Position numbers: made by a program
Origin: Escherichia coli
Lineage (GTDB): Bacteria; Pseudomonadota; Gammaproteobacteria; Enterobacterales; Enterobacteriaceae
Length of the DNA stretch: 64,000 nucleotides
Assembly (NCBI RefSeq): GCF_017348835.2
Contig: NZ_CP072315.1
Direction: 5' to 3' (one strand)
In this document: positions 6,001 through 9,000 of the stretch, piece by piece
Position numbering within the stretch: the first letter of the stretch is position 1
Layout: each line of letters opens with the position of its first letter

Positions 6001-9000
6001 AGATCAGTGGTGGGATGAACGAGACTTTGCAGTAATTGATCCCGACAACAATTTGATTAGCTTTTTTCAACAAATAAAAAGCTAAAATCTATTATTAATC
6101 TGTTCAGCAATCGGGCGCGATTGCTGAATAAAAGATACGAGAGACCTCTCTTGTATCTTTTTTATTTTGAGTGGTTTTGTCCGTTACACTAGAAAACCGA
6201 AAGACAATAAAAATTTTATTCTTGCTGAGTCTGGCTTTCGGTAAGCTAGACAAAACGGACAAAATAAAAATCTAAATATGCTTGAACAACTTGTAACTTA
6301 AATTCATAACTGTATTTTGCCATAAAAAATGACCTCCCATAAGTTAGATTTTTGGTCTAACTTATGGGGGTCAGTTCATTCTACACTTGGGCTGCATGTT
6401 TTGATTAATTATCTAATATCTCCGGATCTCCTGTAAAGGAATATAAAACTGCCTGCATGTTTTTCAAATAAAATACGGTGAATTTCCCATCATCAGCGCT
6501 ATACCAATCTCTCAAATGCGGATTTGCTTCAAGCATTGCTTCCCTTGCTTCCACGGTATCATCAATTACGGCTTCGCCGGTGAGCCGAATCCATTTTCCT
6601 TTTGCCATACCTGAGACTTCCACCTTTGAATTTGCCAATAACTGCTGATAAACTTTTTTCTGATTGGTTGTACCAAGATAGACCTTGCCATTCCTCTCCA
6701 TGGCTGCATTAAACGGTCTGACCCTTGGCTGGTCTCCTTCAACGGTTGCAAAATAAAAAGTTTTTGCTTCATTTAAAAAATCAACAACTTGACTCATCCT
6801 TTTTTACCTCCATAAATAAATTTTTCTTTACTTTTCTTTGACCTAAATTCCACGTGCATTTTTTATTAGCTTAAAAGAACACTATTTCACGAAGAATTTA
6901 AACTGATACTCCCACATTGTAACATTATTTACCACCACCTTTCAATCTTTTTCAATAAATTATTGATTGCAACTTTTGAGTAAAGATACTTATTAAACCC
7001 TGCAAGTTATCCACAGAGCAACACTCGATTTTCAAGATGATATCTTTATTACACCAGACATTTTTCATACACTTCCTTGGGCACTGTTGCAAAGTTAGCG
7101 ATGAGGCAGCCTTTTGTCTTATTCAAAGGCCTTACATTTCAAAAACTCTGCTTACCAGGCGCATTTCGCCCAGGGGATCACCATAATAAAATGCTGAGGC
7201 CTGGCCTTTGCGTAGTGCACGCATCACCTCAATACCTTTGATGGTGGCGTAAGCCGTCTTCATGGATTTAAATCCCAGCGTGGCGTTGATTATCCGTTTC
7301 AGTTTGCCATGATCGCATTCAATCACGTTGTTCCGGTACTTAATCTGTCGGTGTTCAACGTCAGACGGGCACCGGCCTTCGCGTTTGAGCAGAGCAAGCG
7401 CGCGACCATAGGCGGGCGCTTTATCCGTGTTGATGAATCGTGGGATCTGCCACTTCTTCACGTTGTTGAGGATTTTACCCAGAAACCGGTATGCAGCTTT
7501 GCTGTTACGACGGGAGGAGAGATAAAAATCGACAGTGCGGCCCCGGCTGTCGACGGCCCGGTACAGATACGCCCAGCGGCCATTGACCTTCACGTAGGTT
7601 TCATCCATGTGCCACGGGCAAAGATCGGAAGGGTTACGCCAGTACCAGCGCAGCCGTTTTTCCATTTCAGGCGCATAACGCTGAACCCAGCGGTAAATCG
7701 TGGAGTGATCGACATTCACTCCGCGTTCAGCCAGCATCTCCTGCAGCTCACGGTAACTGATGCCGTATTTGCAGTACCAGCGTACGGCCCACAGAATGAT
7801 GTCACGCTGAAAATGCCGGCCTTTGAATGGGTTCATGTGCAGCTCCATCAGCAAAAGGGGATGATAAGTTTATCACCACCGACTATTTGCAACAGTGCCC
7901 AAACGCGAAGGCCGGTGCCCGTCTGACGTTGAACACCGACAGATTAAGTACCGGAACAACGTGATTGAATGCGATCATGGCAAACTGAAACGGATAATCG
8001 GCGCCACGCTGGGATTTAAATCCATGAAGACGGCTTACGCCACCATCAAAGGTATTGAGGTGATGCGTGCACTACGCAAAGGCCAGGCCTCAGCATTTTA
8101 TTATGGTGATCCCCTGGGCGAAATGCGCCTGGTAAGCAGAGTTTTTGAAATGTAAGGCCTTTGAATAAGACAAAAGGCTGCCTCATCGCTAACTTTGCAA
8201 CAGTGCCGGCTGAAGGCCGAGCAAGCCTGACAGGCCCGAAAAGCCCGGCACGGGCGTCGGCGGCGATGACGGCGGCGGCATTATCCAGGGTTGATGATGG
8301 AAGTGGAGGATATCGACAACCTCTCGCGCAACCAAGACATCGCGGTCGGACTGCAAGTGATCTTGAAGCCACGGGCCCGTCCCACCCCGACATGGACCTC
8401 GATGCCCGAACGGACGTTAGATTTCGAGTTCTAGGCGTTCTGCGATGAAGGTTGGATCCCAGCCGGGATTGAAAGTGTCGACGTGGGTGAATCCGAGCCG
8501 CTCGTATAGGCCACGCAGGTTCGGGTGGCAGTCGAGCCGCAGCTTGGCGCACCCCTGCGTTCGCGCGGCATGGCGGCAAGCCTCGATCAGCGCGGAGCTG
8601 ACACCCCGGCCCGCATGTGTCCGTCGCACCGCGAGCTTGTGCAGATATGCGGCCTCCCCCTTGAGGGCGTCGGGCCAGAACTCGGGATCCTCGGCCGACA
8701 AGGTGCAACAGCCGACGATGCCGTCGCTGCAACTCGCGACTAGGAGCTCGGATCTCAGGACGAAGGTCTCCGCGAATGTCCGGTCGATCCGCGCGACGTC
8801 CCAGGCGGGCGTTCCCTTGGCGGACATCCACGCCGCAGCGTCGTGCATCAGCCGCACAACCTCGTCGATATCACCCGAGCAGGCGACCCGAACGTTCGGA
8901 GGCTCCTCGCTGTCCATTCGCTCCCCTGGCGCGGTATGAACCGCCGCCTCATAGTGCAGTTTGATCCTGACGAGCCCAGCATGTCTGCGCCCACCTTCGC

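Follow-up and report, generated by a model that had tools for sequence, protein, structure and literature searches.

An IS26-mediated adjacent deletion as the probable origin of a complete IS26 abutting an inverted partial IS26 in an IncHI2 multiresistance region

Introduction

The closest described system to the locus reported here is the intramolecular replicative transposition of IS26 in cis. In the account of He et al. (2015; PMC4471558), this reaction leaves the element in place beside its old flank, joins its other terminus to a distant target and removes the DNA in between. A circle with a second copy of the IS is produced, which, according to the same account, survives only if it is able to replicate. 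Such deletions are described there as hard to prove unless the replicons 'before' and 'after' the event are both known. The term used by Harmer and Hall (PMC9602291) is adjacent deletion forming a translocatable unit (TU). A variant of the element is also relevant: an increased activity has been reported for its transposase, Tnp26, with the G184N substitution (Pong et al. 2019, cited in PMC9019673).

Here we describe a junction in which a complete IS26 of the G184N form lies directly against an inverted partial IS26 of the standard form. On the evidence of the two plasmid sequences compared below, both the 'before' and the 'after' replicon appear to be known in the present case.

Results

Genetic context of the junction

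The window, that is, the whole stretch of 64,000 nucleotides from Escherichia coli contig NZ_CP072315.1 that was analysed, is an IncHI2 multiresistance region of the Salmonella/E. coli type. For its right-hand part, matches were obtained to conjugative IncHI2 plasmids from China, carried by Salmonella and E. coli, and its left-hand part gives mosaic matches to the same plasmids. A BLAST search of positions 7080–7899 against the window returned eight full-length copies of IS26, one at 4739–5557 (819 bp, frameshifted) and the others starting at 7080, 14801, 18763, 32683, 37917, 43272 and 47259, together with two fragments of 308 bp and 58 bp. The copy starting at 7080 is referred to as copy B. 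A segment with bleO and a nimC-like gene is its conserved original flank on the IRR side, and a class 1 integron 3'-CS remnant lies beyond the 308-bp fragment on the other side, with sul1, qacEdelta1 and aadA16 (an aadA gene by NCBIfam) following beyond orf5. The features around the junction are as follows.

5558..7079: segment with bleO (by NCBIfam) and the nimC-like gene (pyridoxamine 5'-phosphate oxidase family)
7080..7899, minus strand: IS26 copy B, complete, 820 bp (BLAST against the window and direct reading)
7900..7907: CAAACGCG, the first 8 bp past the IRL end of copy B
7900..8207, plus strand: delta-IS26, the IRR-proximal 308 bp of an inverted G184-type IS26 (BLAST, NCBIfam and translation)
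8208..8917, minus strand: class 1 integron 3'-CS remnant, consisting of 209 bp downstream of orf5 and orf5 itself
8417–8917, minus strand: orf5 (GNAT; NCBIfam)

Structure of copy B and of the fragment abutting it

Copy B is bounded by perfect terminal repeats of 14 bp, with GGCACTGTTGCAAA at 7080–7093 and its reverse complement at 7886–7899; the IRR end is at 7080 and the IRL end at 7899. Its tnp26 coding sequence (7132–7836, minus strand) is an intact open reading frame for Tnp26, a DDE transposase of 234 amino acids, which is recognised by the NCBIfam model NF033587 (IS6 family transposase) with 278 bits against a cutoff of 125. Codon 184 is AAC and is translated as asparagine, so that copy B is of the IS26-v1 (G184N) type.

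The 308-bp fragment begins at 7900 with no spacer after the last base of copy B, and is the reverse complement of IS26 positions 1–308 counted from the IRR end. It encodes Tnp26 residues 151–234, with glycine at position 184, and is assigned by NCBIfam to the IS6 family transposases; it is a non-functional remnant. Only two mismatches distinguish it from copy B, both of them in codon 184. The IS26 variants differ at ref 207/208 (TT versus CC) and at ref 362 (T versus C). The G184-type bases are preserved in the fragment, as in the orthologous complete copy of p2016062-242 described below, and N184 is preserved in copy B, so that two distinct parental elements have been joined. At 8207 the fragment borders with its IRR end on the 3'-CS, 209 bp downstream of orf5. 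The first-pass annotation had described a complete N184 IS26 head to head with 308 bp of a G184-type IS26, the latter truncating the 3'-CS downstream of orf5. Both statements are correct.

The junction 40-mer, CGACTATTTGCAACAGTGCCCAAACGCGAAGGCCGGTGCC, occurs once in the window, with none expected from shuffles; since the window holds eight full-length IS26 copies and two fragments, the junction is not a matter of chance similarity. A sigma-70-like outward hybrid promoter able to drive the truncated tnp26 was not found at the new junction, and the sequence there does not suggest any new function. The octamers on the two sides of copy B, CTTCCTTG on the left and CAAACGCG on the right, are different, so there is no target-site duplication (TSD).

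Comparison with p2016062-242

The nearest relative of the window is p2016062-242 (NZ_CP090540.1), an IncHI2A plasmid of Salmonella enterica from a patient in Henan, China. The stretch 94000–172000 of this record was assembled from three loci and then aligned to the window. Just two co-linear blocks were obtained, with a total of five substitutions and one indel across 64 kb.

Window 1–7899: NZ_CP090540.1 98112–106010, same orientation, 1 mismatch
Window 7900–64000: NZ_CP090540.1 114849–170948, same orientation, 4 mismatches and 1 single-base indel (block as returned by the alignment: window 7896–64000, record 114845–170948)

The sole structural difference is that record positions 106011–114848 (8,838 bp) are missing from the window. 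The left end of this gap is the first base past the IRL terminus of the orthologue of copy B, which in p2016062-242 is also an N184 element (IS26 family transposase WP_001067858.1) and lies between the nimC-like gene and oqxA. The right end is located 512 bp inside a complete, inverted G184-type IS26 that adjoins orf5. The missing segment contains oqxA, oqxB, oqxR, a defective IS26, tnpR, blaTEM-1, a 58-bp IS26 fragment and 512 bp of the target IS26; for its unique parts, oqxAB and tnpR-blaTEM-1, no other copy was found in the window. The IS26 sequences concerned have the following positions in the record.

111204–111891: internally deleted IS26 in the missing segment
114279–114336: 58-bp IRL-end fragment of IS26 in the missing segment
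114337–115156: complete inverted G184-type IS26 with its IRR end adjoining orf5; the first 512 bp are lost and the last 308 bp are kept in the window

The junction between the nimC-like gene and copy B is present in p2016062-242, in pS438 and in about 35 IncHI2-type plasmids among the matches listed. Because this flank is conserved, and is shared by p2016062-242, which resembles a precursor, copy B occupied its site before the 308-bp fragment came to lie beside it. The arrangement expected of a precursor, in which blaTEM-1 is followed by the 58-bp fragment, the complete IS26 and orf5, is found within PLSDB only in p2016062-242.

Across the 64 kb, p2016062-242 resembles the window in its IS26 copies, their flanks and their variants, but differs from it in having the oqxAB-blaTEM-1 segment and, beside orf5, an IS26 that is complete. 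In addition, the four N184-type IS26 copies of p2016062-242 carry C, not T, at the synonymous position ref 362. Because the N184-type copies differ at this position, the two plasmids are cousins, and p2016062-242 is a close relative of the window plasmid rather than its proven direct ancestor.

Origin of the junction

Two origins for such a scar had been offered by the first-pass annotation, an IS26 inserted inside another IS26 and an IS26-mediated adjacent deletion. The comparison speaks for the latter, as the window corresponds to p2016062-242 minus the 8,838 bp between copy B and the inverted IS26. We conclude that the 7899/7900 junction is very probably the scar of an adjacent deletion, i.e. 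of intramolecular replicative copy-in transposition of IS26 in cis. The anatomy of the junction, the states before and after the event and the absence of a TSD or of an inversion can be read directly from the two plasmids. Copy B still sits where it was, with one flank unchanged and with no TSD, the gap begins exactly at the terminus of the IS, and both sides of the junction are co-linear with the undeleted relative.

The proposed course of events is as follows. The precursor would have been an IncHI2 plasmid like p2016062-242, with copy B already located between oqxA and the bleO/nimC segment. From its IRL end, copy B would have attacked the 8-bp target CAAACGCG, some 8.8 kb away, inside the complete and oppositely oriented IS26 that bounds the integron 3'-CS next to orf5. 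The role of CAAACGCG as the retained copy of this target within the attacked IS26 is a likely one because IS26 is known to make an 8-bp staggered cut (PMC4471558). In the cis outcome, copy B would stay with its old left flank, its IRL terminus would be joined to the target, and 8,838 bp would be removed. The expected reciprocal product would be a non-replicating circle, the TU, of about 9.67 kb (IS26 plus record positions 106011–114856), with a second IS26 copy and the other copy of the 8-bp target, and we presume that such a circle was released. The catalyst was presumably the Tnp26 of copy B itself; in principle, this end of the element could also have been processed by Tnp26 from another active IS26 copy. 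As for the direction of the change, deletion is to be preferred to re-insertion, since a re-inserting TU could only come from the undeleted form.

The insertion of one IS26 into another was considered in two forms. A simple insertion would require an 8-bp direct duplication together with both halves of the target IS26, and was rejected: the octamers beside copy B are different, the 512 bp lacking from the target IS26 were found neither beyond copy B nor elsewhere in the window, and copy B was already in place. In the second form, IS26 (or a cointegrate) would first have entered the body of a resident IS26 by simple or intermolecular copy-in, and the other half of that resident element would have disappeared later. 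The resulting joint between an IS terminus and an internal position of IS26 would be indistinguishable from the one observed, and IS26 is described as forming cointegrates by copy-in (PMC4471558). However, this pathway needs at least two events where one suffices. It is also at odds with the lack of a flanking 8-bp duplication, with the conserved nimC junction at the other flank of copy B, which is shared by many plasmids and by p2016062-242, and with the fact that the 512-bp partner is nowhere in the window. We therefore consider it highly improbable.

It might also be supposed that the deletion was made independently of transposase, by illegitimate or homologous recombination, given that the endpoints share a microhomology of 3 bp (TGC). 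However, one endpoint falls exactly at the IS26 terminus, a single position among thousands, which is expected only for a joint made by transposase, and a homologous exchange between inverted IS26 copies would give rise to an inversion instead of a deletion. The probability of this explanation is accordingly put close to nil. The trans (inversion) model of IS26 transposition was likewise tried and is ruled out by the same-orientation co-linearity of both blocks with p2016062-242; the reverse-complement partner of CAAACGCG was not found next to any IS26 in the window.

Earlier history of the truncated IS26

The IS26 that supplied the 308-bp fragment has an older history, which involves a second region of the window.

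8208..8215: GGCTGAAG, half of an 8-bp TSD, outside the 308-bp fragment; reverse complement of CTTCAGCC
32683..33502, minus strand: IS26 copy C, complete, G184-type, directly abutting the 58-bp fragment
33503..33560, minus strand: 58-bp IRL-end fragment of IS26, counterpart of the 308-bp fragment
33561..33568: CTTCAGCC, second half of the 8-bp TSD, outside the 58-bp fragment

Beyond position 33568 the 3'-CS continues, and IS6100 and the mph(A) module come next. In pEC22-CTX-M-15 (NZ_CP084901.1), where nothing interrupts the 3'-CS at this site, the sequence is ...CGGCCTTCAGCCTGCCTGG... and the octamer is present once. Because the outer octamers of the window are reverse-complementary and the octamer is single-copy in the uninterrupted pEC22-CTX-M-15, the 308-bp and 58-bp fragments are the opposite ends of a single ancestral IS26, which had inserted into the 3'-CS between orf5 and IS6100 and made a normal 8-bp TSD.

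The two ancestral ends are now 25 kb apart and inverted, and each is abutted by a complete IS26. The rearrangement that separated them is older than the deletion, since p2016062-242 has it too. The same joint between the 58-bp fragment and an IS26 is found twice in p2016062-242, once next to blaTEM-1 and once on the IS6100 side. Three possible origins of this doubled joint were considered, namely transposition of a whole 878-bp unit, insertion and then homologous recombination, and inversion between IS26 copies; matching 8-bp signatures were found for none of the three models.

A separate observation concerns IS26 copies D and C, whose left flanks match at seven of eight positions when CGTAAATC is compared with the reverse complement of the other flank, GGTAAATC. 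In pEC22-CTX-M-15 these octamers flank one single IS26, in unrelated contexts.

Occurrence of the junction in other replicons

The first-pass annotation had also suggested that the 7899/7900 junction might serve as a clonal marker, to be sought in other plasmids. When a 141-bp query across the junction was searched against PLSDB, no single-piece match was obtained among the matches listed; all of the full-coverage matches (163/163, among 5000 matches listed) were in two pieces and represent other arrangements of IS26 and delta-IS26. The same query gave no single-piece match in 5,426 complete E. coli genomes. The exact junction 40-mer was absent from GTDB, represented by one genome per species, and from the JGI metagenome contigs. 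A wider query of 2.2 kb is uninformative for the junction, since separate IS26 pieces are joined in the search output. The results fit an exact junction that is private to this plasmid lineage, as far as the searched collections go, and its proposed use as a private or lineage marker is compatible with them.

Junctions of similar design are present in pSMS35_130 (NC_010488.1) and pKP46-5 (NZ_CP088123.1), in both of which the IRL end of a complete IS26 abuts an inverted IRR-end fragment of IS26, as it does here. The retained fragment is 339 bp in pSMS35_130 and 422 bp in pKP46-5, compared with 308 bp in the window, and both abutments lie next to aph(3')-Ia, whereas the present one lies next to the integron 3'-CS.

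These findings bear on the question of whether the junction could be an artefact of assembly, a mis-join or collapse among IS26 repeats in a plasmid that really has the arrangement of p2016062-242 or a single intact IS26 at this place. Eight IS26 copies do make the region hard to assemble, and the exact junction is in no other record of the searched collections. On the other hand, mis-joins at repeats switch within the homology and produce a full-length chimeric IS26, not a joint between a terminus and a non-homologous position in the interior of an inverted copy. The breakpoint is exactly at the terminal base of IRL, as the chemistry of the transposase predicts. A fold-back chimera is ruled out because the two arms of the 308-bp inverted repeat bear variant bases of two different parents. 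The window lacks the genes that are unique to the missing segment, and similar junctions with other breakpoints are seen in independent finished plasmids. An assembly artefact is thus unlikely, and we would assign it only a very small probability.

Discussion

Both elements at the junction are IS26 itself, one in the standard form and the other in the G184N form. The mechanism is already known, and adjacent deletions by IS26 as well as truncated IS26 copies are well documented in the literature, the latter in dozens of papers. The value of the present case is local: it records how an IncHI2 multiresistance plasmid lost oqxAB and blaTEM-1 in one step, and no new mechanism is involved. It offers a single-step, before-and-after example of how IS26 trims a multiresistance region. 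The deletion explains why the window plasmid, unlike its closest relative, is devoid of oqxAB (olaquindox/quinolone efflux) and blaTEM-1, and the unique 7899/7900 junction is usable as a PCR or k-mer marker for the deletion derivative.

Synapsis between two IS26 normally leads to the targeted conservative reaction. One may speculate, with very little confidence, that the recurrent abutments of IS26 and delta-IS26 are a failed or alternative outcome of such a synapsis, with the bodies of IS26 being preferred rather than random targets of copy-in, perhaps especially for the hyperactive G184N variant. It is also conceivable that chimeras with several ends, such as the 1,128-bp unit of IS26 plus 308 bp or the 878-bp unit of IS26 plus 58 bp (32683–33560), could move as units by means of their outer ends.

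Compared with IS26-v1 (Tnp26 G184N; Pong et al. 2019, as cited in PMC9019673 and PMC7986276), copy B has the same N184, and it would have been this form of the enzyme that presumably catalysed the event. Compared with the deletions in cis described for IS26 (PMC4471558 and PMC9602291), the window has several features in common: the IS keeps one old flank and has its second terminus fused to a target some distance away, a TSD is lacking, the resistance genes in between have disappeared, and the setting is a multi-IS26 resistance region of a clinical plasmid. The present case differs from them in that the target lies inside another IS26, so that a partial IS26 is left as the scar, and in that the circle is a presumed product, while a near-identical 'before' plasmid is unusually at hand.

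A 58-bp IS26 fragment joined to a complete IS26

Copy C, a complete IS26 of the G184 type (glycine at Tnp26 residue 184), directly abuts a short end fragment of the same element:

32683-33502, complete IS26 (copy C), in the same orientation as the adjoining fragment
33503-33560, 58-bp IS26 end fragment (IRL end, last 58 bp)

Directly beyond the fragment lies CTTCAGCC (to window position 33568), which forms a TSD pair with 8208-8215, the octamer outside the 308-bp IS26 fragment on the integron 3'-CS side. The joint occurs a second time in the near-identical Salmonella enterica IncHI2 plasmid p2016062-242 (NZ_CP090540.1), where it adjoins blaTEM-1 and has another outer flank, and it is also carried by several E. 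coli IncHI2 plasmids. Together with the 3'-CS flank, it was found in only six PLSDB records. Complete copy and fragment make up an 878-bp unit that could conceivably move in one piece. The stretch 33875-34173 has 72% identity to IS26 and corresponds, by annotation in relatives, to IS6100, which is also a member of the IS6 family; it lies a short way past what remains of the 3'-CS, with the mph(A) module downstream of it.

Sequence variation among the IS26 copies

Copy A (window 4739-5557) is 819 bp long, and its tnp26 is frameshifted by a 1-bp deletion accompanied by a substitution near reference positions 355-357 of IS26 (TGATGAATCG to TGAGGATCG); the identical defect is present in p2016062-242. 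In p2016062-242, the IS26 on the right-hand side of the oqxAB unit (NZ_CP090540.1 111204-111891) is also defective, with ~130 bp deleted internally between a pair of short direct repeats (CAGTACCAGCG); it belongs to the segment that the window has lost.

At reference position 362, all four N184-type copies of the window carry a T (window 7441, 15259, 43633 and 47620), a synonymous difference from the C found in all four orthologous copies of p2016062-242. These sites make up four of the five substitutions separating the two sequences. Such uniformity suggests either that the copies changed in concert, through gene conversion between them, or that one of the two assemblies had its repeats polished to a consensus.

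Other repeats in the window

The inner edge sequences of the bleO/nimC segment recur between IS26 copies G and H, close to the blaCTX-M-55 module:

5558-5694 and 45052-45188, 137 nt, 100% identity
6842-7079 and 46762-46999, 238 nt, 87% identity

The ISVsa3 (ISCR2-like)/floR-upstream region lies between perfect direct repeats of ~307 bp (21213-21519 and 25497-25803). Within the integron cassette array (aadA16/dfrA27/arr-3/aac(6')-Ib-cr), a motif of ~123 nt is present three times (10212-10334, 11176-11298 and 13111-13233; 89-100% identity), and its copies are probably shared cassette-boundary sequence.

An IS26-bounded inversion

Of the inverted IS26 copies D and C, the left flank of D (14793-14800, CGTAAATC) matches the reverse complement (GGTAAATC) of the left flank of C (32675-32682, GATTTACC) at seven of eight bases. 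In the comparison plasmid pEC22-CTX-M-15, one single IS26 is flanked by both of these sequences, and the segment 18763-33503 lies in the opposite orientation to that in the window. The sibling p2017028-250 presents a further, different IS26-bounded arrangement, in the order blaTEM-1, IS26, repC.
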